A stretch of DNA of 64,000 bases from Acidimicrobiia bacterium (GCA_035304485.1 DATGPZ010000082.1:570-64569); one strand, 5' to 3'. Numbered from the stretch's first letter, positions 1,996 through 45,025 are shown. Numbers and translations are program-made. Notes: generated from the letters alone by a model not told the origin.

Positions 1996-2039
1996 ACAGG
2001 GCAACCTGTCACAGCCGGATGGCGGTGGGAAGGGGGTCG

Positions 2040-2096: not shown

Positions 2097-2109
2097 CTAG
2101 AGTGAGCGT

Positions 2110-2976: not shown

Positions 2977-3099
2977 AGGGCACGAGTCCCCACGGGCGTG
3001 TACTCTCGGCAGAGGGTATGTGGACAACAGGATGCTCGGGGCGTGGACCTCCGATAGGGGCAGTACACCTGCCAGCCACTCGAAGGAGGAAACCCGACC

Positions 3100-4182: not shown

Positions 4183-4214
4183 ACATCGGTACCGGTTCGC
4201 AGTAGGGGTATGAC

Positions 4215-6399: not shown

Positions 6400-6447
6400 C
6401 GTTCACGGTTTCCCCATGATTCGTCTCGTGCACCCGGAGATGCCCGT

Positions 6448-7074: not shown

Positions 7075-7114
7075 AGTGCTCGGGCCGCCACGGATTAGGA
7101 GCTATCGCGGAGTC

Positions 7115-7990: not shown

Positions 7991-8007
7991 GTGGAGATGG
8001 AAAGGGA

Positions 8008-8040
8008 CTGTGTGGAGGAGGGTCCCTCCACACAGTCCCT
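8008..8040. terminator. Perfect 13-bp-arm inverted repeat, likely a bidirectional terminator
   Basis: gactgtgtggagg-agggtcc-ctccacacagtc directly downstream of the HbhA-like gene stop (minus strand) and closing the convergent intergenic region. Confidence 0.45.
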
Positions 8041-8048
8041 TTCGGATT

Positions 8049-8585
8049 TCAGGAAGCCTTGGACTCCGTCGAGGAGGCCTTGGTCTCCGCCGGCTTCTTG
8101 GCGGCAGGCTTCTTGGCGGCCGACTTCTTCGCGGTGGCAGCCTTCTGAGTGGTCGCCTTGGCCGTGCCGGCCTTCTTGGCGGCAGGCTTCTTCGCAGCCG
8201 GCTTCGTTGCCGTGTCGGCATCGGCGGCCTTCTCGGTGGCGCCGTTCTCGGAAGCACCGTTCTCGGCGGCGCCTTCCGGTCGGAAGGAGGCTCGCCACGT
8301 GGTCAGCATGTCCTCGAGCTGGTCCCGCAGCTTCCCGACCTGCTCACGGGCCTGGTCGAAGTCGACCTTGGCCGTGATCTCGTCGACCACCTTGCGATCC
8401 GACAGCTTCTCGACAGCCTGTTCGCCTTCGGTGGCGAACTCTTCGAGTAGCTCCTTGGCTCGCCGGGTGACATCGTCCGAGCGGTTCTCGAGTTCCGCTC
8501 GCAGCTTCTCGAGGCGGGCGTTGACGGCCTTGGCGGCGACGATCGGCGCCCCGACGGCCGCGTAGACGGCATTCTTGGTCTTCAT
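8049..8585 (-). CDS. hbhA: Heparin-binding hemagglutinin-like protein (coiled-coil N-domain with a Lys/Ala-rich AKK repeat tail)
   Basis: 178 aa. C-terminal KPAAKKPAAKKAGTAKATTQKAATAKKSAAKKPAAKKPAETK repeats, and an N-terminal amphipathic helix region as in mycobacterial HbhA. Upstream XRE regulator, as in the hbhA locus. Confidence 0.55.
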   Translation of the reverse strand: MKTKNAVYAAVGAPIVAAKAVNARLEKLRAELENRSDDVTRRAKELLEEFATEGEQAVEKLSDRKVVDEITAKVDFDQAREQVGKLRDQLEDMLTTWRASFRPEGAAENGASENGATEKAADADTATKPAAKKPAAKKAGTAKATTQKAATAKKSAAKKPAAKKPAETKASSTESKAS

Positions 8586-8956
8586 GGTGACTCCTCCTGA
8601 GTGGGGTCGTCTTCGTTTCCAGAGGTCTCGATGAGCGTGCGGTACAGATCCAGAAGCACCTGTTTGTGGCGGGGGCTGAGGAGACGATCCGCTTCGATCG
8701 CCTCCACCACGGTGGGAGGGCTCCCGCCTTCCTCGATCAGGCCGGCCCGTGAATACATGGTCTCGGCCGAGATCGAGAGCGCTCGCGACAACTGCTTCAA
8801 AATATGTGCCGACGGGCGGCGAATCCCGCGTTCGATCTGACTCAGGTAGGGATTGGAGATCCCTGCCCGATCTGCCAACCGACGCAGCGACAGGTTCGCC
8901 CGCTGACGCTGCTGGCGGATGAAGTCGCCGAGATCAGTCGCCTGCTCGTCGTTCAC
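8582..8956 (-). CDS. XRE-family helix-turn-helix transcriptional regulator
   Basis: 124 aa. HTH LSLRRLADRAGISNPYLSQIERGIRRPS. Overlaps the hbhA-like start (ATGA). Confidence 0.75.
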   Translation of the reverse strand: MNDEQATDLGDFIRQQRQRANLSLRRLADRAGISNPYLSQIERGIRRPSAHILKQLSRALSISAETMYSRAGLIEEGGSPPTVVEAIEADRLLSPRHKQVLLDLYRTLIETSGNEDDPTQEESP

Positions 8957-9091
8957 ACCTTCAGGATACCGGAAGCTGCTAACTAATGCAAGCAGGATGT
9001 CTGCTCACAGCAACCTGAGGGAGGACGTCACCGACCTCGGTTGTGATCTGACGGGCGCGCAGGGCAAACTGCAGGTGACGAAAGGCCACAG

Positions 9092-10105
9092 ATGATCATC
9101 GTCATGAACAATTCTGCCACCGACGCCGAGGTCAAGGCGGTCGTGGAGCGACTCCAGTCGATCGGGTGCGAGGCCCATGTCTCGGTCGGTCAATATCGCA
9201 CGGTGATAGGCGCCCTGGGCGACCGCGAAGCCATCCGCCAGCTGCCCTGGGAGGCGATGGCCGGTGTGGAGAAGGCGGTTCCCGTCATGAAGCCGTTCAA
9301 GTTCGTCTCTCGGGAATTCCAGGCGGAGGACACCGTCATCGAGGTCCGCAATGCCGTGCTCGGCGGGGGCGGTTTCACCGCTATCGCCGGACCCTGTGCC
9401 GTGGAGAGCCGAGACCAACTGTTCCGCACGGCCGAGGCGGTGAAGAAGGCCGGCGCCACCATTCTGCGGGGCGACGCCTTCAAGCCACGTACCTCGCCGT
9501 ACTCGTTCCAAGGAATGGGCGAGGAAGGGCTCGAGCTGTTGGCGGCCGCCCGGGAGGAGTTCGACATGCCTTTCGTCGCCGAGGTCCTCGACCCCAGGGA
9601 CGTCGGCCTGGTCTCGTCCTACGCCGACATCCTGCGGATAGGCACCCGCAACATGGCCAACTTCACCCTTCTCACCGAGGTCGGGCGCCAGGACAAGCCG
9701 GTCCTTCTGAAGCGGGGCTTCACTGCCACCATCGAGGAGTGGTTGAACGCCGCCGAATACGTGTACAAGGAGGGCAACCAGCAGATCATCATGTCCGAGA
9801 GGGGTATTCGCACCTTCGAGACGGCTGCCCGCAACACGCTGGACATCACGGCCGTCCCCCTCTTGAAGGGCATGTCGCATCTGCCGGTCATCGTCGATCC
9901 TTCCCACTCCGGAGGCAAGCGTGAGCTGGTCTCCCCGCTCGCCCGGGCCGCGGTGGCGGTCGGCGCCGACGGGATCATGGTGGATGTGCACCCGACACCC
10001 GATACCGCTCTCGTCGATGGCGCCCAGGCGCTCCTCCCCTCCGAGTTCGTCGAGCTGATGCAGGTCGTCCGATCGATCTCGGAGATCGTCTCGGGAACGA
10101 ATTGA
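9092..10105 (+). CDS. 3-deoxy-7-phosphoheptulonate (DAHP) synthase, type I-beta, with N-terminal ferredoxin-like/ACT-type regulatory domain
   Basis: 337 aa. KDO8PS/DAHPS-family catalytic core (AGPCAVES, KPRTSPYSFQG, DPSH) preceded by an approximately 70-aa regulatory domain. Confidence 0.8.
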   Translation: MIIVMNNSATDAEVKAVVERLQSIGCEAHVSVGQYRTVIGALGDREAIRQLPWEAMAGVEKAVPVMKPFKFVSREFQAEDTVIEVRNAVLGGGGFTAIAGPCAVESRDQLFRTAEAVKKAGATILRGDAFKPRTSPYSFQGMGEEGLELLAAAREEFDMPFVAEVLDPRDVGLVSSYADILRIGTRNMANFTLLTEVGRQDKPVLLKRGFTATIEEWLNAAEYVYKEGNQQIIMSERGIRTFETAARNTLDITAVPLLKGMSHLPVIVDPSHSGGKRELVSPLARAAVAVGADGIMVDVHPTPDTALVDGAQALLPSEFVELMQVVRSISEIVSGTN

Positions 10106-11121
10106 GGGCGACCATCCTCGGCACCGGCCTGATCGGTGCCTCCGTCGGAGCCGGTCTGCGTGAAGCGGGCTGGAAAGTGACCGGTTGGGATCCCGAGCCC
10201 TCGCACCTACGGGAAGCGAGCGAGATGGGAGCGGTGGACGAGATCCTGACCGACTTTCCCGAACGGATCAGCGGCGAGGATCTGGTGGTGTTGGCCGGTC
10301 CGGTCAGGGCCATCCTCGCCTCGCTGGGAGAAATCGAGACCGATGCGCTCGTCACCGACGTCGCCTCGGTCAAGACGTCGGTCGTCTCGGCTTCCCGCCG
10401 GCCCGCCCGCTTCGTGGGTGGTCACCCGATGGCCGGCAGGGAGAGCTCAGGCCCGGGTGCGGCCAGTGCTGCCATGTTCAGGGGGGCGACATGGATCCTG
10501 ACCACGGACGGCGCCTCACCCGATGATCTCGCTACGTTGGAAGAAGTCGTGACGGCTCTGGGGGCGGTCCCGGTCCGCATGACCGCCCAAGCCCACGACG
10601 CGGCCGTGGCGGCCGTCAGCCACGTTCCTCAGGTGGTCGCCTCGGCGCTCGTCAATCTCGTCGCTCGGGAGGACACGGCTCTCTCCCTGGCGGCGGGCGG
10701 CTTTCGGGATCTGACTCGAATCGCACTCTCGGAACCGGCGTGGTGGAGCGACGTCCTGGCCGCCAACCGGGACTCCGTGGCCGGCCTGGTGCGGCGGCTC
10801 ACCGATGAGCTGACCGAATGGGCCGAGAAGATCGAGCGAGGTGATACCGAAGCCATCGCCTCGGGTCTGGAAGCTGCCCGAAGCACCCGGCGGAGCCTGG
10901 CACCGCCCGTGGCCGCCGTCCAGGTCGTACTCGAAGACCGACCGGGCGAGCTGGCGGGAGTCGGCATGGCGCTGGCGGAATCGGGCGTCGACATCCGCGA
11001 TCTCCAACTGCGACACGCCACCCGCGGGGGCGGCGGGGTGTTGACGCTGTCGGTGCGACCCGGTCAGGAGGAAGCACTCACTGAGGCCCTGGCCGAGCGC
11101 GGTTTCCGGCTCGTCGGGTGA
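10102..11121 (+). CDS. tyrA: Prephenate dehydrogenase with C-terminal ACT domain
   Basis: 339 aa. N-terminal Rossmann ILGTGLIGASVG, TyrA core, and a C-terminal ACT-like domain. ATGA-coupled to the DAHP synthase. Confidence 0.75.
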   Translation: MRATILGTGLIGASVGAGLREAGWKVTGWDPEPSHLREASEMGAVDEILTDFPERISGEDLVVLAGPVRAILASLGEIETDALVTDVASVKTSVVSASRRPARFVGGHPMAGRESSGPGAASAAMFRGATWILTTDGASPDDLATLEEVVTALGAVPVRMTAQAHDAAVAAVSHVPQVVASALVNLVAREDTALSLAAGGFRDLTRIALSEPAWWSDVLAANRDSVAGLVRRLTDELTEWAEKIERGDTEAIASGLEAARSTRRSLAPPVAAVQVVLEDRPGELAGVGMALAESGVDIRDLQLRHATRGGGGVLTLSVRPGQEEALTEALAERGFRLVG

Positions 11122-12312
11122 TCAGACCGCGGTATCGAGCAGCCGGTGCAGTGTGGCGGTCGCGGCTTTCAAGCCGACCTCGAGGGCACGTTCGTTGAAC
11201 ACGAAGCCGGCGGAGTGGAGGTCGCAGAACCCCGTGTCGGGAGCGGATCCGAGCCGCAGGAGAGCCCCCGGCACCACCTCCAGGTAGCGGGAGAAGTCCT
11301 CGGCGCCCATGCTGACGTCGGTGGTGGTGACCGCTTCGGGACCCAGGTTGTCCACTATCGCCTTGCGGGCCACGTCGATCAGACCCGGGTCGTTCACCAC
11401 GGGGGGTATACCCGGCTGGTGGGTCACGGTGACTTTGGCGCCGGTGGGGGCGACGATCTGCTCGGCCAGGTTCTCCAAGAGGAACGGAATCTCCTCCCAC
11501 AGGCCGCGGTCAAGGGTACGAATCGTTCCTCCCAGTTCGAGCCGGGTGGGTATCACGTTGTCGGCCGTCCCGCCTTCGATGCGCCCGAATACCACCACCA
11601 GCGGCCGGCGAGCATCGACCACGCGATCCAGCAAGGTCGGTAGCTCGGTCACCACCTTCCCCGCCGCATAGACGAGGTCGGCCGTCTGATGGGGCCGGGC
11701 CGTGTGGCCCCCCGGCCCTTCCAGGCGAATGTGGAATCGGTCGGCGGATCCGGTGATGGCGCCCGTCCGGAGGCCGACGGTCCCGGACCGCAGGCCAGGG
11801 TCGACATGGAAGGCGAGAATCGATTCCAGTTCTTCGACCACTCCCTCTTGGACCAGCGTCAGCGCCCCTCCAGGGAACGACTCTTCACCGGGCTGGAAGA
11901 TGACCCTCACCCGACCCGGCAGATCGAGCTGGGCGAGGATCAATGCCACACCGGCAGCGATGGCGGTGTGGGCGTCGTGACCGCAGGCGTGCATGACTCC
12001 CGGGATCTGAGAGGCATGCGGGTTGTCGGGCGGCTCGGCGATCGGCAGCGCGTCGAGATCTGCCCGAAAGCCCACGGCTCGGCGTCCCGTCCCGATATCG
12101 ACCGTGAGACCGGTCCCCGACGGACGAACCGTCGGTTCCAGGCCCCGATCGGAGAGCAGGGTGGCCACCCGCTGGGTGGTGGCGAACTCATTGAACGACA
12201 GCTCGGGGTTCCGGTGGATGGCGCGCCTCAACTCCACGACGGTGGGGAGCACCGTGGCGACCAGCCCCCGCAGCGTCTCTGCGGTGACCATGCCTCGACC
12301 AGGATAGTTCAC
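11122..12312 (-). CDS. M20-family amidohydrolase (N-acyl-amino-acid amidohydrolase / hippurate hydrolase-like)
   Basis: 396 aa. Metal-binding motifs HACGHD and GGTADNVIP typical of M20D peptidases. Confidence 0.75.
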   Translation of the reverse strand: MNYPGRGMVTAETLRGLVATVLPTVVELRRAIHRNPELSFNEFATTQRVATLLSDRGLEPTVRPSGTGLTVDIGTGRRAVGFRADLDALPIAEPPDNPHASQIPGVMHACGHDAHTAIAAGVALILAQLDLPGRVRVIFQPGEESFPGGALTLVQEGVVEELESILAFHVDPGLRSGTVGLRTGAITGSADRFHIRLEGPGGHTARPHQTADLVYAAGKVVTELPTLLDRVVDARRPLVVVFGRIEGGTADNVIPTRLELGGTIRTLDRGLWEEIPFLLENLAEQIVAPTGAKVTVTHQPGIPPVVNDPGLIDVARKAIVDNLGPEAVTTTDVSMGAEDFSRYLEVVPGALLRLGSAPDTGFCDLHSAGFVFNERALEVGLKAATATLHRLLDTAV

Positions 12313-32459: not shown

Positions 32460-33296
32460 TCAGCTGGTCAGGGCGCCGAGTGATTCTTCGAGCTCGACAG
32501 GGTCGAGGGTTCCTTCGTAGCGGGCCGTGATCACGCCGTCAGCGTCGGTCACGAAAACCCATGGCTCGGAAGGGAGTCCCCAGGCGTTCACCGCCTCGAC
32601 AGGGATCAGCTCCTCGAACGATTGGGCGTCGAGGTTCTCGTAGACCTCCACGTGGATGAAATCCACATCTGGATACGCCGGGGCGAGCTCCTTTACGTTG
32701 TCGAGCACGGGGCCACAGGTTTGGGAAGTGCAAAAGGCGGGGGTGGCGAAAACGACCACCGTCGGTCGGTCGTCGGTCAGAGCCTCGTCGAGCGACAGAC
32801 GGTAGAGCTCGGGATCCGGCTCGGGGTCCGTCGTGATCTCGGACAGCTCGAACTCGTCGGCGGTTCGGGTGGCAACGGCGGGGCCTTTCTCGCCTACCTG
32901 GGGCATCGGAGTGTCTTCGACCACCGTCAGCGGAACCGGTTCGGTGGGCGAAAAGCCTTCGGCCGCCACCGACACGGTCCAGTTGCCGGCCTCCGGCAGG
33001 TCCACATCGACCCGGTACAGGCCCCGCTGGTCGGGGATGGCCCATACGAATTCGAGGCCAACCTCTTTCTCGTCGCCGCTGGGCGAGGTGAAGGTGGCGC
33101 TGGCTTCGATTTCGGGGTCGGCCAGGAACGCCTGGGTATCCGGATCGACGATTCCCAACAGGACCCGCTGGTTGCCCACCGCCAGCGAGGCGGGAGCACT
33201 GGCGACGAGGGCGATGGGCTGGGTGCCGCCCGAGCAAGCCGCCAGCACGGCGAGTAGGAGGACGAGTGAGACGAGGGCGCTCCAGCGACGGACCAT
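32460..33296 (-). CDS. Thioredoxin-fold lipoprotein (TlpA/SCO-like), candidate cytochrome oxidase assembly factor
   Basis: Probable start MVRRW with lipobox LAAC. N-terminal beta-rich domain, and a C-terminal thioredoxin-like domain with FCTSQTC. Divergent from ctaB and upstream of ctaC. Confidence 0.5.
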   Translation of the reverse strand: MVRRWSALVSLVLLLAVLAACSGGTQPIALVASAPASLAVGNQRVLLGIVDPDTQAFLADPEIEASATFTSPSGDEKEVGLEFVWAIPDQRGLYRVDVDLPEAGNWTVSVAAEGFSPTEPVPLTVVEDTPMPQVGEKGPAVATRTADEFELSEITTDPEPDPELYRLSLDEALTDDRPTVVVFATPAFCTSQTCGPVLDNVKELAPAYPDVDFIHVEVYENLDAQSFEELIPVEAVNAWGLPSEPWVFVTDADGVITARYEGTLDPVELEESLGALTS

Positions 33297-33328
33297 GTCG
33301 AGGTCGAGTCTGGCGCTTGTGACAGATT

Positions 33329-34312
33329 GTGCCAACAGAGCCAGGTGCCGGATCATCATCTTTCGGCCGCCGGCGCGAATGTGAGGTATTCCCTTCTGCC
33401 GGTAGCCTTGGTCCTACCGTGGAAGCTCCGGTCGTCGTCGTCGATCCTGTGGTTCGCAGGGGTGTGGTCTCCTCCTATCTGGCCCTGACCAAACCTCGGA
33501 TCATCGAACTGCTCCTCATCACCACCGTCCCATCGATGGTCCTCGCCGCCGGTGGATGGCCGGGATGGTGGCCGGTGGTCGCCACCCTCGTTGGTGGCAG
33601 CCTCTCGGCAGGGGGCGCCAACGCCATCAACAACTGGTTCGACCGAGACATCGACGAGATCATGCGGCGTACCCGTCGCCGTCCTCTGCCCCGACACCGA
33701 ATCACCCCCGAGGCGGCGCTCGTCTTCGGCATCGGATTGGGAGTGGCCGGGTTCGTGTGGCTGTGGGCTTTCACGAATCTCCTGGCGGCGGTTCTTTCGA
33801 CCGCCGCGCTGCTGTTCTACGTGTTCGTCTACACCATGGGTCTGAAGCGGCGTTCGAGTCAGAACATCGTGATCGGGGGAGCGGCCGGTGCCGTGCCCGC
33901 CCTGGTGGGCTGGGCCGTCGTCACCGGCGAGCTCGCCCTGCCGGCCTGGATCCTCTTCGCTCTCGTGTTCTACTGGACCCCGCCTCACTTCTGGGCGCTG
34001 GCGTTGCGGTATCGGGACGATTACGAAGCGGCCGGCGTGCCGATGCTCCCGGTCGTCAAAGGAGTCGAGGCGACCGTCAATTCGATACTGATGTACTCGG
34101 GAACGATGGTCCTGGTGTCGTTGATGCTGGTTCCCGCGGCGGGCATGGGATGGGCCTACCTGGCCGCGGCGGTGGCTGCCGGAGCCTGGTTCATGTGGGG
34201 AGCCTGGCGGGTGCGGGTGGATCCCTCGCGAGCGATGCGGCTCTTCACCGATTCCACCGTCTATCTGACCATCGTCTTCGGCGCGGTCGTCCTGGACGTG
34301 TTCCTGCGATGA
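33329..34312 (+). CDS. ctaB: Protoheme IX farnesyltransferase (heme O synthase)
   Basis: 327 aa. UbiA-family motifs NNWFDRDID. The N-terminal 30 aa may be over-called. Confidence 0.8.
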   Translation: MPTEPGAGSSSFGRRRECEVFPSAGSLGPTVEAPVVVVDPVVRRGVVSSYLALTKPRIIELLLITTVPSMVLAAGGWPGWWPVVATLVGGSLSAGGANAINNWFDRDIDEIMRRTRRRPLPRHRITPEAALVFGIGLGVAGFVWLWAFTNLLAAVLSTAALLFYVFVYTMGLKRRSSQNIVIGGAAGAVPALVGWAVVTGELALPAWILFALVFYWTPPHFWALALRYRDDYEAAGVPMLPVVKGVEATVNSILMYSGTMVLVSLMLVPAAGMGWAYLAAAVAAGAWFMWGAWRVRVDPSRAMRLFTDSTVYLTIVFGAVVLDVFLR

Positions 34313-35499: not shown

Positions 35500-36564
35500 A
35501 TGGAACGCAAAGCCCACAAGACCCCCGGCCGTCCTCCCACCATCGTCTCGGTGGGGAAGGTGAGAATCGGACACGACCCGTTCGTCGTCATCGCCGGTCC
35601 GTGCGCCATCGAGTCGGCTGAACAGATCCATGAAGTCGCCGAGGCCGCCGCCGAGGGCGGCGCCTCGATCCTGCGCGGCGGCGCTTGGAAGTCGACTTCG
35701 TCCCCCTACGACTTCCGCGGCATGGGTCAGGAGGCGGTCGACCAGCTGGCGGCGGCGGGCGAGGAGGTCGGCCTTCCCACCGTGACCCAGGTGCTCGAGG
35801 CCTCCCACGTCGAGATCGCCGCCGAGAAGATCGACATGCTCGAGATCGCTTCCGGGAACATGCAGGACTTCGAGCTGTTGCGCCAGGCCGGTCGGAGCGG
35901 CCGTCCGGTTCTGCTGCGGCGCGGGCCCTCGGCGACGCTCGACGAATGGCTGTGGGCGGCGGAGTACCTCTTGGCCGAGGGGAACGATCAGGTCGTCCTG
36001 GTCGAAAGAGGGATTCGCACCTTCGGCGCCGCCGGGGCAGACACCCTCGACATCGGAGCGGTTCCCTCGATGAAGGAGACCACCCACCTGCCCGTGATGG
36101 TCGATCCTTCTCACAGCGCCGGGGGCGCTCGGCGAGTTCGACCTCTGGCGCTCGCAGCCCAGGGCGTTGGTGCCGACGGCGTCATCCTGGAGGTCCATCC
36201 CGATCCTGAGGTGGCTCGGGTCTCGCTGAACCAGATCGGTCTCGGTGAGTTCGAGGACCTGATGACAGCCCTCGGAATCTCTCGTGTCCGTCGTCACATC
36301 GACCAGATCGATCGTCAGATCGTCCGGTTGCTGGCTCGGCGACAGGAGCTGGCCCTGGAGATCGGCCGGGTCAAATTGACGCGCAACCTCCCTGTCTACA
36401 TCCCCGACCGTGAGAGTGAGCTCCTGGCAGTCGTGCGCGACGAGGCGGAGCATCTCGGGGTGGCCGTGGAGCACATCGAGGAGCTCTTCAACCTGGTGTT
36501 GGCCGAGTCGAAGCGTCTACAGCACGAGATGCGACAGATGGAGGCAGCGGCTCCGGCGAGTTGA
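35500..36564 (+). CDS. Bifunctional DAHP synthase (type I-beta) / chorismate mutase (C-terminal AroQ domain)
   Basis: 354 aa. DAHPS/KDO8PS core (AGPCAIES, KSTSSPYDFRG, DPSH), plus a C-terminal AroQ-type chorismate mutase helix RRHIDQIDRQIVRLLARRQELALEIGRVK. Confidence 0.8.
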   Translation: MERKAHKTPGRPPTIVSVGKVRIGHDPFVVIAGPCAIESAEQIHEVAEAAAEGGASILRGGAWKSTSSPYDFRGMGQEAVDQLAAAGEEVGLPTVTQVLEASHVEIAAEKIDMLEIASGNMQDFELLRQAGRSGRPVLLRRGPSATLDEWLWAAEYLLAEGNDQVVLVERGIRTFGAAGADTLDIGAVPSMKETTHLPVMVDPSHSAGGARRVRPLALAAQGVGADGVILEVHPDPEVARVSLNQIGLGEFEDLMTALGISRVRRHIDQIDRQIVRLLARRQELALEIGRVKLTRNLPVYIPDRESELLAVVRDEAEHLGVAVEHIEELFNLVLAESKRLQHEMRQMEAAAPAS

Positions 36565-36606: not shown

Positions 36607-37386
36607 ATGACTGACCGACCGGTACGCATCGCCGTCCAACTGCAACCCCAGCATGCCGACTACCGGGCCCTCCGCCAGGCCGTCGACCGGGCAGAGGAGC
36701 TGGGTGTCGATGCCGTGTTCACCTGGGACCACTTCTTTCCGTTGAGAGGAGATCCGGAAGGGAAGCACTTCGAGTGTTGGACGATGTTGGCGGCGTGGGC
36801 CCAGCAGACAGAACGGGTCGAGATCGGCGCCCTCGTGACCTGCAACTCCTACCGAAACCCCGATCTCTTGGCCGACATGGCCAGGACGGTGGACCACATC
36901 TCGGAGGGTCGCTTGATCTTCGGAATCGGCGCCGGATGGTTCGAGAAGGACTACGAGGAGTACGGGTACGACTTCGGCACCCCGAAGAGCCGTCTCGACG
37001 ACCTGGAGGCCGCCCTTCCTCGGATCGAGCGGCGTTGGTCGAAGCTCAATCCGCCTCCGACTCGCGACATCCCGGTCATGATCGGAGGTGGGGGCGAGAA
37101 GCGGACCCTTCGACTGGTGGCCCAGTACGCCGACATCTGGCACGGATTCGGCACTCCGGAGACGATCGCCCACAAGCACGCCGTGCTGGACGGCCATTGT
37201 GAGGCGATCGGTCGAGATCCCGACGAGATCGAACGTTCGGCGGGTGCCCGCCCTCACGATGTCGAGACCGGTGACGCCTACTACGAAGTAGGAACCCGCC
37301 TCCTCACTCTGGGCTTCTCGGGACCCGAGTACGACCTCGACCCGGTGGCGGACTGGGTCGCCTGGCGGGACGAACGCAATCGCTGA
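36607..37386 (+). CDS. LLM-class F420-dependent oxidoreductase
   Basis: 259 aa. Luciferase-like TIM barrel family similarity (short F420-dependent subgroup). Confidence 0.65.
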   Translation: MTDRPVRIAVQLQPQHADYRALRQAVDRAEELGVDAVFTWDHFFPLRGDPEGKHFECWTMLAAWAQQTERVEIGALVTCNSYRNPDLLADMARTVDHISEGRLIFGIGAGWFEKDYEEYGYDFGTPKSRLDDLEAALPRIERRWSKLNPPPTRDIPVMIGGGGEKRTLRLVAQYADIWHGFGTPETIAHKHAVLDGHCEAIGRDPDEIERSAGARPHDVETGDAYYEVGTRLLTLGFSGPEYDLDPVADWVAWRDERNR

Positions 37387-37403
37387 CCAGAGGTAGAACC
37401 GGC

Positions 37404-38018
37404 CTACGAGCTGGTGGTGGGCCGGTCGGTCCTCAGGAGGTCACCCGCCGCCGCCAGGATCTCATGGAGGGCGAGCTGTCGGGTCATGCCCGGCTCGCCC
37501 ACCACCACTTGGAGACCGTAGGCGTCGGCCAAGGCGATGATCGTCCTCGCCACCAGATCAACGGGTAGCGCGGGGGAGAAGACCCCAGCGTCCATCCCGG
37601 CCTCGATGATCGAGGAGTAGATCTCGACCTGACGTTCGTGCAGCGTGGATGAGAGCTCCCGATACGTCTCGATGAAGCTCGGCTCCCCGGCGAACTGGTA
37701 CATGATGATCGAATCGACGTCGTCCGGCCCGGTGGGCAGGTCCTGCAGCACGGCGTCGGTGAGGCGAGTCCAGGGATCCCGGCTGCCTTCGAGGACCCGA
37801 GGTGCTTCGGTGAGATAGAGCTGGGCCTGACGTTCGTAGACGTCGACGAGGAGCTCCTTGAGGTCGGGGTAGTAGTAGCTGACGGCGGGCCCGGTCATTC
37901 CCGCCTCCTCGGCGACGTCCTTGAGTCGCAATGCTCCCAGACCCCGGGTGGCGATCGCTCGTTGAGCCGCCTCCATCAGTTCGCGACGGCGCTTTTCCTG
38001 CTTCTTTGGGCGGGCCAA
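37404..38018 (-). CDS. TetR/AcrR-family transcriptional regulator
   Basis: 204 aa. N-terminal HTH LRLKDVAEEAGMTGPAVSYYY. Divergent from the SAHH-like operon. Confidence 0.8.
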   Translation of the reverse strand: MARPKKQEKRRRELMEAAQRAIATRGLGALRLKDVAEEAGMTGPAVSYYYPDLKELLVDVYERQAQLYLTEAPRVLEGSRDPWTRLTDAVLQDLPTGPDDVDSIIMYQFAGEPSFIETYRELSSTLHERQVEIYSSIIEAGMDAGVFSPALPVDLVARTIIALADAYGLQVVVGEPGMTRQLALHEILAAAGDLLRTDRPTTSS

Positions 38019-38125
38019 GGTCTCCTCTCAGAACGGGCGGCACCCTCCGTGGCCGGCTGGAGCATCTATTGGGGCGGCCCGCATAGTTTTTTGTGCAGCA
38101 TAAAGAATCATGCCAGGCTACGGCA

Positions 38126-39385
38126 ATGGAATCGGCAGCAGACCGCTCCCGGATCTTGGATCCCTCGCTCCATCCGGAGGGATCTCTGGCCATCGCCTGG
38201 GCCCGGCGGCATTCTCCCGTTCTCACGGGTCTGGTGGCTTCCACGTTCGAAGACGGTTCCCTGGAAGGAGTACGGGTGGCGGTGGTCGTCCACCTGGAGG
38301 CGAAGACGGCCCTCCTCGCCAGTGTGCTGGCCGATGCCGGAGCCGAGGTGGTGGTGGCCGGCAGCAACCCCCATTCCACGCGGGACGAGATCGCGGCGGC
38401 GCTCGTAGAACGAGGAATCGAAGTCCATGCCACCCGGGGCAGCGACTACGGAACCTGGGAGAAGGATTTACTGGCGGTCGCCGATCGCGAACCGATGTAC
38501 ATCGTCGACGACGGTGCCGAGCTCACGATCCGGATCGCCCGGCAGCGTCCCGACCTCTACCGCCGCCTCCGGGGGGTATCCGAGGAGACCACCACCGGCG
38601 TGGAGCGGCTGCGTCGCCTGGAAGCCGAAGGCAATCTCCCCTTCCCGGCGATGGCGGCCAACGACGCCGCTTGCAAGCACCTCTTCGACAACCGCTATGG
38701 AACCGGGCAATCCACCGTCCAGGCGGTGCTCCAACTCACCAACTTCGTCATGGCCGGCAAAGAAGTGGCGGTCGTCGGTTATGGCTGGGTGGGTCGAGGA
38801 ATCGCGACATACGTGCGAGCCATGGGCGGTCGCGTGTCGGTGATCGAGGTCGACCCGGTGAAGGGACTGGAGGCGCTCATGGAGGGCCATGAAGTCGGAT
38901 CGGCGGCTTCGGTCCTCCCCACGGCCGACATCGTCATCACCGCCACGGGCGGCATGCGTGCGATCGGAATGCGTGACTTTCCCCACCTCAAGCCCAACGT
39001 GGTGCTGGCCAATGCCGGTCATCACGATCTCGAGATAGACGTGGCCGCCCTGGAAGAGCAAGCGGGCGCGCCGCGCCAGGTGAGGCCCGGTGTCGATCGC
39101 TACGAGTGGAACGGAAAACCGATCAACGTCCTGTCGAAGGGTGCTCTGGTCAACATCGCCGGAGGCCTCGGGCACCCCATCGAGATCATGGACCTGTCCT
39201 TCTCCGTGCAGGGTCTCTCCCTCCACGAACTCGTCGTCAACGACCTCGATCCGGGAGTCCACATTCTGCCCAAACCTCTCGATGACGCCATCGCCCGGGC
39301 TCGCCTGGAGGCGGAAGGCGTCCACCTCGACTCACTCTCCTCCGAGCAAGTCGACGACATGGGCGACTGGATCGGAGGACGCTGA
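38126..39385 (+). CDS. Adenosylhomocysteinase-like protein A (divergent SAHH paralog)
   Basis: SAHH family blocks are conserved (ISEETTTGV, PAMAANDAACKHLFDNRYG, GYGWVGRGIA, HHDLEID, GHP), but the canonical STQDH block is STRDE. Start taken at MESAADR. Confidence 0.75.
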   Translation: MESAADRSRILDPSLHPEGSLAIAWARRHSPVLTGLVASTFEDGSLEGVRVAVVVHLEAKTALLASVLADAGAEVVVAGSNPHSTRDEIAAALVERGIEVHATRGSDYGTWEKDLLAVADREPMYIVDDGAELTIRIARQRPDLYRRLRGVSEETTTGVERLRRLEAEGNLPFPAMAANDAACKHLFDNRYGTGQSTVQAVLQLTNFVMAGKEVAVVGYGWVGRGIATYVRAMGGRVSVIEVDPVKGLEALMEGHEVGSAASVLPTADIVITATGGMRAIGMRDFPHLKPNVVLANAGHHDLEIDVAALEEQAGAPRQVRPGVDRYEWNGKPINVLSKGALVNIAGGLGHPIEIMDLSFSVQGLSLHELVVNDLDPGVHILPKPLDDAIARARLEAEGVHLDSLSSEQVDDMGDWIGGR

Positions 39386-40656
39386 TGGCCGATCGGACTT
39401 CCGACATCGTCGACCCGTCCTTGGCGGAGGCCGGTCGTTCCCGAATCGACTGGGCGGCCGATTTCATGCCTGCCCTAGCCGCCGTCTCGGCCGACCCGTC
39501 GGCGGAGGTCCTGCGGGGGCGCCGGGTCGGGGTGGTGCTCACGCTCGAGCCCAAGACTGCGAACCTGGCCCTGGCACTCCATCGCTCTGGCGCCGAAGTC
39601 TCGGTCTTCTGTTCGGGCACACACACTTCCGACGACGTCGCAGCGGCGCTCGACCGCGCCGGCGTCGCGACCTTCGCTCGCTCTGACGCCGATGCAGCGG
39701 TGGACCAGAGACTCCTCGATCGGTTCCTCGATCAACGCATCGAGTTCCTCATCGATGACGGGGCCGCCACCGCTCGACACATGCATACCCACCGCCGCGA
39801 TGCTCTGGAGTCCTTGGTGGGCATCGCCGAAGAGACCACCAGCGGTGTTCGTCCCTTGCGAGTCATGGCCGACGAGGGTGCTCTGGCAGTACCCGCGATC
39901 GCCGTGAACGACGCTGCCTGCAAGCAGTTGTTCGACAACGTCTACGGGACTGGCCAGTCGGTCGTCATGACGCTCCTCGACCTCACCAACACCCAGCTGC
40001 AGGGAAAGCTGGTGGTGGTCGTGGGTTACGGGTACGTCGGCAGGGGGATCGCCGACACAGCTCACGCCCTGGGGGCTCGGGTCGTGGTCACGGAGGTCGA
40101 CCCGGTTCGGGCCCTCCAGGCCCTGCACGACGGCTATCGAGTCGAGACCCTCGAGGCCGCCTCCCGAGAGGGGGACGTCTTCTTCACGGCGACGGGTATC
40201 GGGTACAGCCTCACCGGCGACCACATCCGGTCGATGAAAGACGGAGCCATGGTGGCCGTCGGCGGAGCGGGACCTCCCGAGGTGTCACTCGACGGAGGAA
40301 ATCCCGTTGTCAGGGGAGGGTTCGCCCGCTCTCAGGTGCGCGTCCTACAGGTCGCTTCCGACCGGGAGGTGCACCTCATCGCGGACGGCGAGTGCTGCAA
40401 CGTCGCCGCTGCCGAGGGGAATCCGATCGAGATCATGGATCTCTCCCTGGCCGTCCAGTTTCGAGCAGTCGTCTACCTGGCTCAGCACGCTGCCGGCATG
40501 GCGCCTGGGGTCTACCCGGTGCCGCCCGAGGTCGACGACCAAGTCGCTCGTGCCGTTCTCGGAGCCCGGGGGATCGAGATCGATGTTCCGACGGCCGCGC
40601 AGATTTCTCACGCAACCAACTGGAACGAGTCCATCGACGAGAAGGAAGCCAATTGA
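39385..40656 (+). CDS. Adenosylhomocysteinase-like protein B (second divergent SAHH paralog)
   Basis: 423 aa. Same SAHH blocks (AEETTSGV, AVNDAACKQLFDNVYG, GYGYVGRGIA). STQDH is replaced by TSDDV. TGATG-coupled to paralog A. Confidence 0.75.
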   Translation: MADRTSDIVDPSLAEAGRSRIDWAADFMPALAAVSADPSAEVLRGRRVGVVLTLEPKTANLALALHRSGAEVSVFCSGTHTSDDVAAALDRAGVATFARSDADAAVDQRLLDRFLDQRIEFLIDDGAATARHMHTHRRDALESLVGIAEETTSGVRPLRVMADEGALAVPAIAVNDAACKQLFDNVYGTGQSVVMTLLDLTNTQLQGKLVVVVGYGYVGRGIADTAHALGARVVVTEVDPVRALQALHDGYRVETLEAASREGDVFFTATGIGYSLTGDHIRSMKDGAMVAVGGAGPPEVSLDGGNPVVRGGFARSQVRVLQVASDREVHLIADGECCNVAAAEGNPIEIMDLSLAVQFRAVVYLAQHAAGMAPGVYPVPPEVDDQVARAVLGARGIEIDVPTAAQISHATNWNESIDEKEAN

Positions 40657-42005
40657 CCAACACCATCGCTCGCGGCCTTCGCCTCCTGGCTCTGGTCGCT
40701 TCTATCGCCGTCCTGGCCGCTTGTGGATCGGCCGAGGAAGGATCCAACAGCACGGCATCGAACGGAGCCGATGACCAGACCGCCACCACTCCGGCCGGTG
40801 GTTCGGGTGAGTCGGTGACGCTCGAGGTCTGGAGCTGGTTGCCGAACGACCACGAGAACGGACCCGACACATATGCCCAGATCTTCGACGCCTTCGAGGA
40901 GGCGAATCCGGGTGTGACCATCGAGCTCACCGCCTCTCCCTACACGACCTTCTGGGACTCGTGGCGGAACGCCTCGATCGCCCAGGTGGGCCCGGACGTC
41001 ATCTCCATGTACGGCGGTGCCACCGCCGGCGGCTATGCGTCCTCGCTGGTCCCGCTCCAGGACCTGCTCTCGCCGGAAACCGCCGAGAATCTCCGGTTCA
41101 TCGACTCGACCGTGAGCCCGGACGGGAATCTCTACGTCGCTCCCGCCGGCTCTTACGCCTACTACCTCCTCTACAACGCCCAGATGCTTTCCGACGCCGG
41201 ACTCGACCCGGACCAGGCATTCGCTACTTGGGACGATCTGCTGGCGACGTGTGAGGCTCTCTCGGCTCAGGGAACAACCCCCTTCGCCTCGGGGTGGAGC
41301 GACGGGTACGAGCTCGAGGGATACATGTACATCTTCATGACCCAGTTGCTGGACGACGAGGGCTTCGAATCCTTCGTCACCGGCCAGCTCCCGCTCACCG
41401 ATGAGCGATTCGCAGAAGGCATGAACCACATCGTCGAGATGAACGAAGCCGGCTGCTTCTCGGAGGAGAGCCTCGGTATGACGATGTACTACGACGCATT
41501 CGACGAGGTCATCGCCGGCGAGGCGGTCGCCTTCCCGGCCGGCGGCGGCGACACGGCCGTGTCGGCCGAGGAGAACAACGGCGAGGGCAGCATGGTGGTG
41601 GCCCCGTTCCCGATGGTTCCCGGTTCTCCCCACGAACGCATCTCGGATGCCGGTCCCAACCAGGGATGGTCGGTGACCAACTGGGCGGTCGACCAGGACC
41701 TGGCGGTCGCCCTGATCGAGCACATCCTCTCGCCGGAGTCCCAGCAGTTGCTGTGGGAGAACACCGACCTTCCGCCAAACCGCTCCGATCTGGCGGTCGA
41801 ATCAGACCACCCGCTCTTCGACGACTACCTGGGAATCATCGAGCACCCCACCAACCGGACGACGTTCATGGCCTTCACCGATGCCGCTCTGGCGATCTTC
41901 CAGAGGGAGGCCAGCAACCTGATCGCCGGACGGACGAGCGTCGAAGCCATCCTGGAAGAGGCCGATGCCGCCCAGCAGCGGGCACTGAGCGAACTCGGTC
42001 AGTAG
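40653..42005 (+). CDS. ABC transporter substrate-binding lipoprotein (family 1, sugar/nucleoside-type)
   Basis: TTG start with RBS gaaggaag. Lipobox LAAC. SBP_bac_1-like. The 537-aa track ORF is over-extended upstream. Confidence 0.7.
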   Translation: MTNTIARGLRLLALVASIAVLAACGSAEEGSNSTASNGADDQTATTPAGGSGESVTLEVWSWLPNDHENGPDTYAQIFDAFEEANPGVTIELTASPYTTFWDSWRNASIAQVGPDVISMYGGATAGGYASSLVPLQDLLSPETAENLRFIDSTVSPDGNLYVAPAGSYAYYLLYNAQMLSDAGLDPDQAFATWDDLLATCEALSAQGTTPFASGWSDGYELEGYMYIFMTQLLDDEGFESFVTGQLPLTDERFAEGMNHIVEMNEAGCFSEESLGMTMYYDAFDEVIAGEAVAFPAGGGDTAVSAEENNGEGSMVVAPFPMVPGSPHERISDAGPNQGWSVTNWAVDQDLAVALIEHILSPESQQLLWENTDLPPNRSDLAVESDHPLFDDYLGIIEHPTNRTTFMAFTDAALAIFQREASNLIAGRTSVEAILEEADAAQQRALSELGQ

Positions 42006-42024
42006 CGCCCGGAGGCTGAACGGG

Positions 42025-42912
42025 GTGCGCTGGGGAAGGGACAGAGCAGAACCGGCACGGTCGGCCCTCTTGGTGGGGCCGGCCGTGCTCCTCGTTGCCG
42101 CCATCCTCTACGGCCCCACCTTGTATGTCGGCTTCCAGTCGTTCTTCGACTGGCGACCCAACTCTCCAAGCCCTTTCGTGGGTCTGGACAATTACCTGAC
42201 GGTCCTGGGATCGGATTCCTTCCAGACCGTCATGTGGAACCAGTTCGTCCTCATCCTGGGGCTTCCGCTGTGGGTCATCGTGCCCCTGATGATCACGTTC
42301 CTGCTCCACAAGGATGTCAAGGCTCCCGGTCTGTGGCGGACCATCTACTTCGTGCCCGCGGTGCTCTCCCCGGCTCTGGTCGGCATCCTGTTCCGCGCTC
42401 TCCTCGGGTCGGACGGAGTCGTCAATGCCGGGTTGCGGAAGATAGGGCTCGACTGGCTGGCACTCGGCTGGTTGACCGAGCCTCATCTGGTCAAACCGGT
42501 CATCATCGTTCTCATCCTCTGGGCCCAGGTCGGAGTCGGGGTGGTGATCTTCAGCGCCGCCCTCAGCGCCGTCCCCGAGGAGCTCTTCGAGGCGGCCGAA
42601 CTCGACGGTGCCGGTTGGTGGACCCGGCTCACACGGATTGCGGTCCCATCGATCAAGGACGCCATCTGGTTGTGGGTGGGATTCCAGGTGATCGCCATCT
42701 TCCTCTTCATGTTCGGCTGGGTCTACGTCCTCACCGGAGGTGGGCCCGGCCTGGCCTCCACCACCATCGATTTCCTCGTGTATCAGGAGGTGTTCCGGTT
42801 CGGCTTCTTCCCGACGGCCGCCGCCATGTCGATGTTGATGGTGCTGGTCCTCCTGGCACTGTTCGGGGTCCCGGCAGCCTTGGTCCGGCGCCGCATGCGG
42901 GGGACGTCGTGA
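42025..42912 (+). CDS. ABC transporter permease (MalF/UgpA-like)
   Basis: 295 aa, 6 TM, EAA-like loop. Confidence 0.75.
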   Translation: MRWGRDRAEPARSALLVGPAVLLVAAILYGPTLYVGFQSFFDWRPNSPSPFVGLDNYLTVLGSDSFQTVMWNQFVLILGLPLWVIVPLMITFLLHKDVKAPGLWRTIYFVPAVLSPALVGILFRALLGSDGVVNAGLRKIGLDWLALGWLTEPHLVKPVIIVLILWAQVGVGVVIFSAALSAVPEELFEAAELDGAGWWTRLTRIAVPSIKDAIWLWVGFQVIAIFLFMFGWVYVLTGGGPGLASTTIDFLVYQEVFRFGFFPTAAAMSMLMVLVLLALFGVPAALVRRRMRGTS

Positions 42913-43733
42913 CCCGGAAGATGCGAGTGACGCTGAGGACCTCGGTGGCGGCTCTGCTCGCCATCCCCTTCCTCGTCCCGTTCTTCTTCCTGATCACGAT
43001 GTCGATCCGGACGGAAGCCGACTACCGGGCCGATCCGGTCGGATTGCCGACCACCTTCACATGGGACCACCTGACCGACGCCTGGGAGCGAGCCGATCTG
43101 GGTAGTGGGCTCGTCAACTCGCTGATCACCTCCGCCGTCGGTGTGGTGGTGGCATGTCTCGTCAGCATGGCGGCGGCGTACTGGTTTTCGATCCACCGGA
43201 CTCGCCGCGCGGACCGGCTCCGCTGGGCGATCGTCGTGGGCTACGCCTTCCCGGCGGTCATATGGCTGATCCCACTCTTCGTGATCGCTGCTCGCAACGG
43301 GCTCACCAACAACTTGATCGTCCTGGGTCTCGTGTATGGGGCATCGAACATCCCGTTCGGCGTGTACATGATCCACTCCTTCTATCGCCAGGTCCTCCGG
43401 AGCGAGATCATGGACGCGGCGGCTCTCGACGGGGCGGGGACCCTCCAGACCTTTCGCTGGATCGCTCTGCCCCTTGCACGTCCGGCGGTGGCCGCGCTGG
43501 CGGCGCTGGTGTTCGTGTGGTCGTTCGGCGACCTCTTGTTCGCGGTCACCTTTCTGCAGGACTCCTCGAAGTGGACCATCCCCATCGCAGCCGCCACTCT
43601 CGTCAGCCGCCAGACCATCACCCCTCAGGGTCAAGCGGCCGCTGCCCTGGTGGCATTGGCGCCGAGCTTGGTGGTCGTTCTCGTCGCCCAACGGGCATTG
43701 GTCCGTGGGTTCGGCGGAGGGAGTGCGGACTGA
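42909..43733 (+). CDS. ABC transporter permease (MalG/UgpE-like)
   Basis: GTG start overlapping the upstream stop. EAA motif EIMDAAALDGAG. Confidence 0.75.
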   Translation: MTRKMRVTLRTSVAALLAIPFLVPFFFLITMSIRTEADYRADPVGLPTTFTWDHLTDAWERADLGSGLVNSLITSAVGVVVACLVSMAAAYWFSIHRTRRADRLRWAIVVGYAFPAVIWLIPLFVIAARNGLTNNLIVLGLVYGASNIPFGVYMIHSFYRQVLRSEIMDAAALDGAGTLQTFRWIALPLARPAVAALAALVFVWSFGDLLFAVTFLQDSSKWTIPIAAATLVSRQTITPQGQAAAALVALAPSLVVVLVAQRALVRGFGGGSAD

Positions 43734-45025
43734 TGGCCGTTCAGCTCATCAGTGCCGACGTGGTGGTGCCTGTCGCCGGCCCGGCGATCGACGGCGGCGC
43801 CGTGGCGATCGAGGGCGGTCGGGTGGTCGAGGTTGGGACCCGTCGCCGACTTCGGACCGAATTCCCGGAGGCAGAGGAACGTCACCACCGGGGCGTCGTC
43901 ACACCCGGTCTCGTCAATGCCCATACTCACCTGCAGTTCACCTCCTTCGCCGAGATCGGTCGCCAGATCCACGACGGGTTCGAGGAATGGTCGGTCGTCT
44001 TCGATCGCAAGTACGGGCAGAGGGCGCCCCGTGAGGACTGGTACGGAGCCGTGCTCGCAGGAGCTCGCCTCGCTCTGGCGACCGGAACCACGACGGTGGC
44101 GGAGATAAGCACCGACTTCGAGGCCGTTCCGGCAGTGAGAGAAGCTGGCCTGGGTGGAGTCGTATATCTCGAGGCCCTCGGCCACACCTGGGACGCCTGG
44201 GAAGGAGGGGAGCGGGCCCGCTATCTGGCTGCCCTCGAGGATGCCCTCTCGATCCAGGACGACCGCGTCCGGATCGGGGTCTCCCCGCACGCTCCCTACT
44301 CGCTCGACACCGACGTGCTCACCGATATGGCTGCCATTGCCCGCGACCGGGGCATGCGAGTCCACACCCATCTGGGCGAGTCCGCATACGAGGACGAATA
44401 CTGCATGTTCGCCACGGGGCCTCTCGCCGACTTCGTGCGGGGATTCGGTCGAGGATTCCAGATCGTCGTCGAGGGCGGATGTGGTGTCGGCACGGTCGAG
44501 TTCAGCCACCGGATCGGTCTGCTGGGGCCCGACACCCACGTCGCCCACGGCATCTATCTGGACGAGCCGGGACGTGCCCTGCTGCGCGAACTCGACATCC
44601 CCGTCGCCCTGTGTCCCCGCTCGAACGAGGTGATCGGCCTGAAGGAGCCGCCGGTGGCTGCGTATCTGCGAGAGGGCAATCCGGTGGCGGTCGGCACGGA
44701 TTCGCTCGCCTCGTCCCCGTCTCTCGATCTCCTCGAGGACGTAACCGTGCTGTATCGGCTCGCCCAGGAGCAGGGATATGACGAGCCAGACCTGGCAGAG
44801 CGTCTATTTCGGGCTGCCACCCGTGGGGGCGCGTACGCCCTCGGCCTGGACCATCCCGAAGGCGTCGGTGCTCTCGCCCCCGGCCGGCAGGCCGACATCG
44901 CCGTCTTCGATATGGCAGTGACCGCCGACCACGCCCTGGAGGCGTTGGTACGGGAAGGCGCCGGTCGATGCGTCGCCACCTATGTGGGTGGAGAGGCGAT
45001 GACGGTTTCGACCGAATCGAGCTGA
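43733..45025 (+). CDS. Amidohydrolase-superfamily deaminase (MtaD / guanine deaminase / chlorohydrolase subgroup)
   Basis: Start MAVQLISADVVVP (TGATG coupling). Metal ligands VNAHTHLQF and HTHLGES. GTDSLASSPSLD matches the MtaD-type GTDG..SN..LD block. Confidence 0.75.
   Translation: MAVQLISADVVVPVAGPAIDGGAVAIEGGRVVEVGTRRRLRTEFPEAEERHHRGVVTPGLVNAHTHLQFTSFAEIGRQIHDGFEEWSVVFDRKYGQRAPREDWYGAVLAGARLALATGTTTVAEISTDFEAVPAVREAGLGGVVYLEALGHTWDAWEGGERARYLAALEDALSIQDDRVRIGVSPHAPYSLDTDVLTDMAAIARDRGMRVHTHLGESAYEDEYCMFATGPLADFVRGFGRGFQIVVEGGCGVGTVEFSHRIGLLGPDTHVAHGIYLDEPGRALLRELDIPVALCPRSNEVIGLKEPPVAAYLREGNPVAVGTDSLASSPSLDLLEDVTVLYRLAQEQGYDEPDLAERLFRAATRGGAYALGLDHPEGVGALAPGRQADIAVFDMAVTADHALEALVREGAGRCVATYVGGEAMTVSTESS

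Follow-up and report, generated by a model that had tools for sequence, protein, structure and literature searches.

An Acidimicrobiia operon joining two divergent S-adenosylhomocysteine hydrolase paralogs to a deaminase and importer genes: a candidate route for uptake and breakdown of a 5'-substituted adenosine

Gene content and organization of the operon

The DNA analysed here, referred to as the window, is a 64,000-nucleotide stretch from Acidimicrobiia bacterium (GCA_035304485.1 DATGPZ010000082.1:570-64569). At 38126-45025 it contains an operon that encodes two paralogs of S-adenosylhomocysteine hydrolase (SAHH), designated A and B, the substrate-binding protein and two permeases of an ATP-binding cassette (ABC) importer, and a metal-dependent deaminase. 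Gene content was established from an open reading frame (ORF) listing and from profile searches of the window (Pfam, NCBIfam), and the gene positions and families proposed in an earlier reading of this DNA (the initial annotation) were borne out. The features are as follows.

36607-37386, + strand: F420-type LLM oxidoreductase (TIGR03856, 407 bits, cutoff 244)
37404-38018, - strand: TetR-family regulator, divergent from the operon (Pfam TetR_N, 1.5e-7, and TetR_C_6/17)
38019-38125, no strand: divergent spacer, candidate promoter/operator, with an AT-rich string at 38082-38114
38126-39385, + strand: SAHH-like A, 419 aa, short form with HxExK motif and His-His gate (NCBIfam, Protein Data Bank (PDB) matches, residues)
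39385-40656, + strand: SAHH-like B, 423 aa, conserved histidine-less paralog with NAD and ribose sites retained (residues, NF004005)
40653-42005, + strand: CUT1-family substrate-binding lipoprotein (SBP_bac_8 and SBP_bac_1; lipobox LAAC)
42025-42912, + strand: ABC permease 1, MalF/UgpA-like (BPD_transp_1; resembles GlcT/UgpA)
42909-43733, + strand: ABC permease 2, MalG/UgpE-like (BPD_transp_1; resembles GlcU/MalG)
43733-45025, + strand: cog0402-type metal-dependent deaminase of the amidohydrolase superfamily (Pfam Amidohydro_1, 2e-41)

Four of the five junctions between the operon genes overlap: TGATG joins A to B (1 nt shared), TTGA joins B to the lipoprotein gene, GTGA joins the two permease genes and TGATG joins permease 2 to the amidohydrolase, whose true start is the ATG at 43733. 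The only gap, 19 nt long and including GGAGG, lies between the lipoprotein gene and permease 1. The genes at 38126-45025 thus form a translationally coupled operon, as had been claimed. The start assigned to A (419 aa) is confirmed by an identical database protein (P0121). The G+C content of the window is about 65 per cent, not the 70 per cent first quoted.

Public assemblies hold proteins identical to A and to B, plus one that is 99% identical to the amidohydrolase, and each of the three operon proteins occurs there on more than 70 contigs. The 90%-identity cluster members are HLT96108, HLT96109 and HLT96113, from an Acidimicrobiia metagenome-assembled genome (MAG), where they are named adenosylhomocysteinase (twice) and amidohydrolase family protein; the accession gap between HLT96109 and HLT96113 agrees with the gene order of the operon.

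Active-site residues of A and B

Both paralogs were aligned to human SAHH, the numbering of which is used below. A retains His55, Glu57, Lys59, Asp131, Glu156, Lys186, Asp190, Asn191, His301 and His353, and at gate position 302 it has His in place of Phe/Tyr; judged by these residues, it appears to be catalytically complete. B carries the substitutions Thr55, Ala301, Gly302 and Asn353, and retains Glu57, Lys59, Asp131, Glu155, Glu156, Thr157, Lys186, Asp190, Asn191 and the GYGxVGRG motif. The initial annotation held that both proteins keep the NAD-binding and most catalytic residues. This is correct for the NAD site, Lys186, Asp190 and Asn191, and incorrect for the histidines of the HxDxEID and GHP motifs, which B has lost.

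The NAD Rossmann motif, Asp131, Glu156, Lys186, Asp190 and Asn191, present in A and B, are invariant in the B family. The loss of His55, His301 and His353 is common to 120 of the 120 closest B homologs, which have invariant residues of their own (Pro58, Ser159, Pro163, Asp205, Cys344 and Leu362). Because the histidine losses are shared in this way and accompanied by B-specific invariant positions, B appears to be a distinct subfamily under purifying selection and not a decaying copy. In SAHH enzymology His55 and His301 serve the 5'-hydrolytic half-reaction, and Lys186, Asp131 and Glu156 serve oxidation and proton abstraction. Since B lacks the hydrolytic histidines and keeps the oxidation residues, its residue pattern predicts oxidation and elimination without standard hydration; a lyase-type or other reaction would be possible.

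A different residue, the final histidine of the STQDH block, had been put forward as the catalytically important loss in both paralogs. This position is not conserved among short-type SAHHs: the Thermotoga maritima enzyme has STQDD, and among 55 single-copy short-type SAHHs the block reads STQDD in 28, STNDK in 11 and STQDE in four, which makes the STRDE of A nearly canonical. The argument built on this block was therefore rejected.

Relationship to characterized SAHH families

With the NCBIfam models, A scores 513.6 for NF004010 (cutoff 512), 497 for NF004005 (cutoff 275) and 429 for TIGR00936 (cutoff 497.6), and B scores 419 and 350 for the latter two. Identity to human SAHH is about 37% for A and about 33% for B. 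The top PDB matches of A are the T. maritima SAHH and archaeal SAHH/S-inosylhomocysteine hydrolases (SIHH).

Enzymes with the motif HxTxE/Q prefer S-adenosylhomocysteine (SAH), and HxExK enzymes prefer S-inosylhomocysteine (SIH), in which case the Glu binds N1 and the Lys binds O6 of inosine (Koeppl et al. 2024, PMC10978960). HxTxE/Q is absent from both paralogs. A has the full HxExK motif (HLEAK), and B has ExK without the His (TLEPK), so that the two residues reading a 6-oxopurine, Glu and Lys, are preserved in both; the deaminase step should accordingly come first. The motif in A, tied to SIH preference (PMC10978960), supports the initial idea of viewing the operon in the frame of a deaminase paired with an SAHH homolog.

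A neighbour-joining tree with 100 bootstraps, in which T. maritima was represented by residues 2-405 taken from a HMMER alignment, gave 100% support each to the A clade, the B clade, their sister relationship and the grouping of A plus B with the T. maritima HxExK enzyme. Neither paralog clusters with bona fide AhcY. Both appear to sit beside the inosine-preferring Thermotoga/archaeal branch, apart from the SAH-preferring AhcY enzymes.

A solo A-like clade, abundant in Acidimicrobiia, has HxExK, the His-His gate and Gln156. It occurs without B and without a deaminase gene next to it, and is probably the housekeeping enzyme that gave rise to the paired A. The solo gene is followed by a PNP_UDP_1 phosphorylase in L085-L087 (9001-10990) and L092-L093 (6001-7990), and in L088 (7743-10305) it adjoins a Bmp-family nucleoside ABC transporter.

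The cog0402 deaminase

The amidohydrolase carries the full cog0402 metal and catalytic set (HxH, HxxE, a third His and an Asp): all 121 family members share H64/H66, H213-x-x-E216, H272 and D323, and the family also has a CPRSN motif. Its earlier placement in the MtaD subgroup could not be upheld, as the protein reached none of the NCBIfam cutoffs and stayed far below each. Scores were 73 bits with the methylthioadenosine (MTA)/SAH deaminase model PRK15493 (cutoff 779), 115 with the 5'-deoxyadenosine deaminase model (cutoff 522), 141 with the aminofutalosine deaminase family model (cutoff 320) and 93 with the guanine deaminase model (cutoff 375). The top PDB matches are PA3170 MTA deaminase, 8-oxoguanine deaminase and aminofutalosine deaminases, with Tm0936 ranking lower; the match to PA3170 (PDB 4gbd) is weak (2.6e-25, 92.7 bits) and falls in two separate stretches. 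Homologs are publicly named amidohydrolase family protein, cytosine deaminase or aminodeoxyfutalosine deaminase. The protein is best regarded as a cog0402 deaminase of a separate, unassigned subfamily, the nearest characterized relatives of which act mostly on 5'-modified adenosines. In an Odinarchaeota MAG (L025, 8552-11251) a distant amidohydrolase, 23% identical to that of the window, lies directly upstream of a canonical HxTxE SAHH.

Conservation of the module

Conservation was surveyed by local BLAST in 80 genome loci from a B-profile scan and in four neighbourhoods of B homologs, which represent three distinct contexts. A B-type gene was present in 29 loci. In 25 of these an ortholog of the window amidohydrolase (44-53% identity) lies next to B, and of the other four one is interrupted by a contig end. 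The co-conservation in other genomes on which the initial annotation had staked its proposal was thereby confirmed. B and the deaminase occur together in Acidimicrobiia, Micrococcales, Streptosporangiales, Nocardia, Kribbella and Nitriliruptoraceae, and also in a Rhizobiales genome and in Pseudomonadales and Granulosicoccus MAGs; the gene set recurs in many soil and marine bacteria. A deaminase-anchored search gave three contexts, with B beside the deaminase in Microbacterium and Demequina, and, in Sphaerisporangium rufum, with just an energy-coupling factor (ECF) transporter and the deaminase. The link between B and the deaminase is strong, not absolute.

Four layouts were found. The window-like order A-B-CUT1-deaminase occurs in Leucobacter, the Rhizobiales genome, the Pseudomonadales MAG, Kribbella and Acidimicrobiaceae. 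In Acidimicrobiia and Nitriliruptoraceae a polar-amino-acid ABC transporter (PAAT) lies upstream or downstream of A-B-deaminase, and in Rhizohabitans, Nonomuraea, Plantibacter, Nocardia fusca, Rathayibacter and Streptosporangium the order is A remnant-B-ECF-deaminase. The fourth is A-B-deaminase followed by a major facilitator superfamily (MFS) transporter. Accessory genes that recur by Pfam are an ECF S component, a PAAT binding protein, a LacI regulator, an inosine/uridine nucleoside hydrolase and Cupin_5. Two aspects had escaped the initial annotation: it is B, and not A, that forms the constant partner of the deaminase, and the importer class is interchangeable.

The inosine/uridine nucleoside hydrolase gene adjoins A in L014 and L027. 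The latter, from Kribbella (1071-11176), has two A-B pairs on opposite strands with this hydrolase gene between them; one pair comes with the CUT1 importer, and its A copy is changed at residues 156 and 191. TauD/TauE genes lie near the module in L003. In Microbacterium (L090, 1-16556) and Plantibacter (L013, 6415-8810) the module stands among genes of sulfur-scavenging type, namely NtaA/SsuD-like LLM monooxygenases, an ACAD-like gene, a flavin reductase-GntR fusion and a Cys/Met pyridoxal phosphate enzyme. A Cupin_5 (DUF985) gene directly follows the deaminase gene in L013 (15664-16242), L023 (5733-6200), L033 (12495-13001), L065 (6109-6570) and L091 (9302-9730), a position it takes only in those Micrococcales loci whose A gene is a remnant or part of a fusion with B. 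Cupin_5 may replace a function of A, or its distribution may reflect shared ancestry.

Importer components

The window encodes the binding protein and both permeases expected of a CUT1 importer. The lipobox LAAC was read in the translation of the binding protein, orthologs of which occupy the same position in L014, L015, L018-L021, L026 and L027; permease 1 has orthologs in related loci at 50-59% identity. An MsiK-like ATPase was not found in the 64-kb window, and the relatives L014 and L019 encode one after the deaminase. Taking the loci together, four unrelated importer classes (CUT1 ABC, polar-amino-acid ABC, ECF and MFS) lie inside or beside the module, and the association of the same enzymes with different importer classes speaks for uptake of the substrate from outside. 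An amino-acid moiety on the substrate would fit the PAAT binding protein, which resembles generic polar amino-acid binders. As specific clues to the ligand the binding proteins were discarded, the CUT1 matches being to generic sugar binders and the PAAT matches to generic polar amino-acid binders.

A is the variable member of the pair

The A gene is far from uniformly preserved. Where the importer is of the ECF type, B is preceded by a 110-370-aa remnant of the Rossmann domain of A, from which the glycine motif and catalytic residues are usually missing. The A proteins of L009/L010 lack His55, Asp131, Glu156, Asp190, Asn191 and His353, and in L021 the A half has Gln55 and Gln156. The ribose and NAD residues of B were never lost across the loci examined. 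A thus decays to a scaffold in several lineages, a trend likewise missed at first, and the notion that B is no more than an inactive companion of A was dismissed, as A is the member that decays. A degenerate SAHH-like gene in a Myxococcota MAG (L052, 7414-8625; Val131, Ile156, Ser353), which is transcribed divergently from the adjoining canonical SAHH gene, seems to have decayed independently.

The suggestion that A and B form a heteromer is supported by natural gene fusions. Full A-B fusions are found in an Acidimicrobiaceae MAG (L021, 8612-11215, one frame of 867 codons from stop to stop) and in P0053, which looks like a 5'-truncated copy of the L021 fusion; remnant-B fusions are found in L033, L065 and P0032. 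Across loci, A-A and B-B identities are correlated (r = 0.96). Together with the 1-nt gene overlap, the fusions and the correlated identities support a physical A/B complex, in which B looks like the indispensable enzyme and A like anything from a co-catalyst to a scaffold.

Regulator, divergent spacer and flanking genes

The TetR protein has a helix-turn-helix domain and reached no NCBIfam equivalog. It presumably controls the operon, as suggested by its divergent position alone; in related loci a LacI regulator is found instead. The AT-rich string catagttttttgtgcagcataaagaatcatgcc, noticed earlier as a candidate TetR operator/promoter, is indeed present in the divergent spacer, at 38082-38114. 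That role was not borne out: within 38019-38125 we saw neither a typical, convincing palindrome nor a sigma-70-like promoter, the one inverted repeat being weak (71% complementary, with arms 72 nt apart). No Rfam family was matched in the window, and an Rfam search of seven related loci for a riboswitch that might point to the ligand gave no match.

The F420-dependent LLM oxidoreductase had been described as flanking the system. Its gene is convergent with the TetR gene, and beside the module elsewhere no ortholog was found except for a distant LLM protein (31% identity) in L003/L004. As it is not co-conserved across related loci, it was rejected as a member of the module and is probably a mere neighbour outside it. 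Just upstream of it, at 35500-36564, lies a gene for a type I DAHP synthase with a C-terminal type II chorismate mutase domain. The flanks are housekeeping in character, with cytochrome oxidase subunits, a UbiA-family gene, Lgt and the DAHP synthase-chorismate mutase fusion upstream, and a Mrp antiporter and a GCS2 gene downstream. A 299-aa ORF at 32460-33359 (- strand), between the genes for cytochrome oxidase subunit II and the UbiA-family protein, had no Pfam match at 1e-5.

Proposed pathway and alternative explanations

In our reading, to which we assign a probability of roughly 0.5, the operon serves the uptake and breakdown of a 5'-substituted adenosine by deamination and NAD-dependent cleavage by A/B. 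The lipoprotein and the two permeases would import the compound with the help of an ATPase encoded elsewhere, and the cog0402 deaminase would convert the adenine base to hypoxanthine. An A/B heteromer with tightly bound NAD+ would then oxidize the 3'-OH and remove the 5' substituent, and the products, inosine and a thiol such as homocysteine, would enter purine and sulfur/methionine salvage. The divergent TetR protein would keep the operon off when the substrate is absent. In this scheme it is the substrate, the order of the steps, the heteromer stoichiometry, the chemistry of the B site and the control by TetR that we infer. The leading candidate substrate would be SAH or a close thio-nucleoside with an amino-acid-like tail, because the enzymes derive from SIH-type hydrolases, amino-acid-type importers make up one of the importer classes, and nucleoside hydrolase and sulfur-metabolism genes accompany some loci.

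Several observations weigh against this pathway. Standard SIH hydrolysis is unlikely in B, because His55 and His301 are absent, and in ECF-type loci B is the only intact paralog, so that a simple model with A as the catalyst and B as its helper fails there. Three A-B loci have no adjacent deaminase; conversely, the S. rufum locus (L089, 4500-9323) has ECF and deaminase genes without A or B. Nor do the transport and control elements name the substrate: the PDB matches of the CUT1 binding protein are weak and to sugar binders alone, the ECF S component is RibU-like, and no operator or riboswitch gave a clue to the ligand in the window, the seven related loci or the L089 leader. SAH is no obvious environmental nutrient, and the sulfur-related neighbours are few and could be a coincidence. 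The L089 leader, about 460 nt long, precedes the ECF ATPase gene and has Rfam matches at chance level only.

A rather doubtful alternative is that the module is the same but that B performs a different chemistry on some other modified or antibiotic nucleoside, with A as a second step or a scaffold; B, left with the 3'-oxidation machinery alone, could be an NAD-dependent C5'-lyase releasing a 4',5'-didehydro nucleoside, an oxidative N-ribosidase or an epimerase. Such a role would suit a protein that always lacks H55, H301 and H353, always keeps K186, D131, E156, D190 and N191, has invariant residues of its own (P58, S159, P163, D205, C344, L362), and stays intact where A is a remnant, is catalytically dead (L009/L010) or is altered (L021 and one L027 copy). 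SAHHs release the free base as a side product (PMC10978960), and Cupin_5 follows the deaminase only in loci without a catalytic A. The last pattern is confounded by phylogeny, all such loci being from Micrococcales. Moreover, both paralogs keep the 6-oxopurine-reading Glu and Lys and descend from SIH-type hydrolases, the A protein of the window is fully intact and its gene is translationally coupled to that of B, and there are no biosynthetic or resistance genes near the module in the window. A bolder and unlikely idea is that B is an obligate heteromeric NAD-dependent C5'-lyase, a new class of the SAH-hydrolase fold, which would take the 5' substituent off a deaminated thio-nucleoside and dispense with hydration by histidines; A, or the Cupin_5 protein in some Micrococcales, would complete the reaction.

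It is quite unlikely that the operon is a housekeeping route recycling the cell's own SAH in the archaeal/Thermotoga style, with the transporter genes as unrelated passengers. The pairing of an HxExK-type enzyme with a cog0402 deaminase does match that route, no third SAHH homolog was found in the 64-kb window, and solo A-like genes beside purine nucleoside phosphorylase raise the possibility that a short HxExK enzyme is the normal SAHH of Acidimicrobiia. However, the transporter genes lie between B and the deaminase and are connected by overlapping stop and start codons, four importer classes recur with the module, and TetR or LacI regulators are what would be expected of catabolic operons. 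The solo clade can be told apart (Gln156, no B, no adjacent deaminase), and in genera that carry the module, among them Nocardia, Kribbella and Streptosporangium, a long canonical ahcY is normally present as well. Finally, although the NCBI pipeline labels both proteins adenosylhomocysteinase, both exceed the NF004005 cutoff and some sources name the amidohydrolase a cytosine deaminase, it is highly improbable that A and B are an ordinary duplicated AhcY acting on SAH beside an unrelated guanine or cytosine deaminase, since neither has HxTxE/Q, B lacks three active-site histidines and is below the TIGR00936 cutoff, each paralog forms its own clade at 100% bootstrap, and the deaminase, with 93 of the 375 bits required by the guanine deaminase model, is tightly syntenic with B.

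Comparison with known systems

Two protein families that pipelines annotate as "adenosylhomocysteinase" are in fact a pair that co-evolves, differs in its active sites and is linked both to a deaminase and to importers of nutrients. B, which keeps the oxidation residues and lacks the hydrolytic histidines, offers a natural experiment on the SAHH half-reactions. Ecologically, the module could be a widespread route to sulfur and purines from waste derived from S-adenosylmethionine; were the C5'-lyase idea true, it would represent an unrecognized way of scavenging sulfur and purine from environmental compounds of the SAH/MTA type in soil and marine Actinomycetota. Koeppl et al. (2024, PMC10978960) note that SIH is left uncleaved by the SAHHs of Streptomyces and may be handled by other enzymes. 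The module is a candidate for SIH-handling enzymes in other Actinomycetota, a question raised by the same study; among the matches found here there were no Streptomyces carriers. Our literature search found no report of tandem or histidine-less SAHH paralogs in bacteria, and a 2026 review of SAHH is silent on them.

The closest known system is the DadD/Tm0936 plus SIH hydrolase route of Methanocaldococcus and Thermotoga, which likewise combines a cog0402 deaminase with a short, C-terminally truncated HxExK SAHH homolog; in the PDB the best match is to the enzyme of T. maritima, which is sister to the A+B clade. The present operon differs in having two co-evolving paralogs, one of them without His55, His301 and His353, in the separate subfamily of its deaminase, in its importer operons under TetR or LacI, and in its hosts, namely Actinomycetota of mesophilic habit and some Proteobacteria. 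P. aeruginosa PA3170 (PDB 4gbd), to which the amidohydrolase has its best PDB sequence match, belongs to a pathway in which a 5'-thio-adenosine is deaminated before the nucleoside is cleaved, followed by methylthioinosine phosphorylase. There the follow-up enzyme is a phosphorylase acting at the glycosidic bond and not an NAD-dependent enzyme of the SAHH type, and there is no importer operon.

Canonical AhcY (EC 3.3.1.1) shares with the paralogs the fold, the NAD-binding GxGxxG motif, Lys186, Asp190, Asn191, Asp131 and Glu156. It has HxTxE/Q and a His-Phe/Tyr gate, whereas A combines HxExK with a His-His gate; in B the motif is TxExK, the gate is Ala-Gly and Asn replaces the GHP histidine. Among SAHH paralogs of altered function the animal proteins AHCYL1/IRBIT and AHCYL2, which have no hydrolase activity, are comparable in that they form hetero-oligomers with one another; AHCYL2 heteromerizes with IRBIT (PMC4930912). 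They serve in animal signalling, carry N-terminal PEST extensions and are not associated with any deaminase or importer. Unlike them, B keeps the catalytic residues for ribose and NAD and is the conserved member of its pair, and for these reasons B looks like an enzyme and not a pseudoenzyme.

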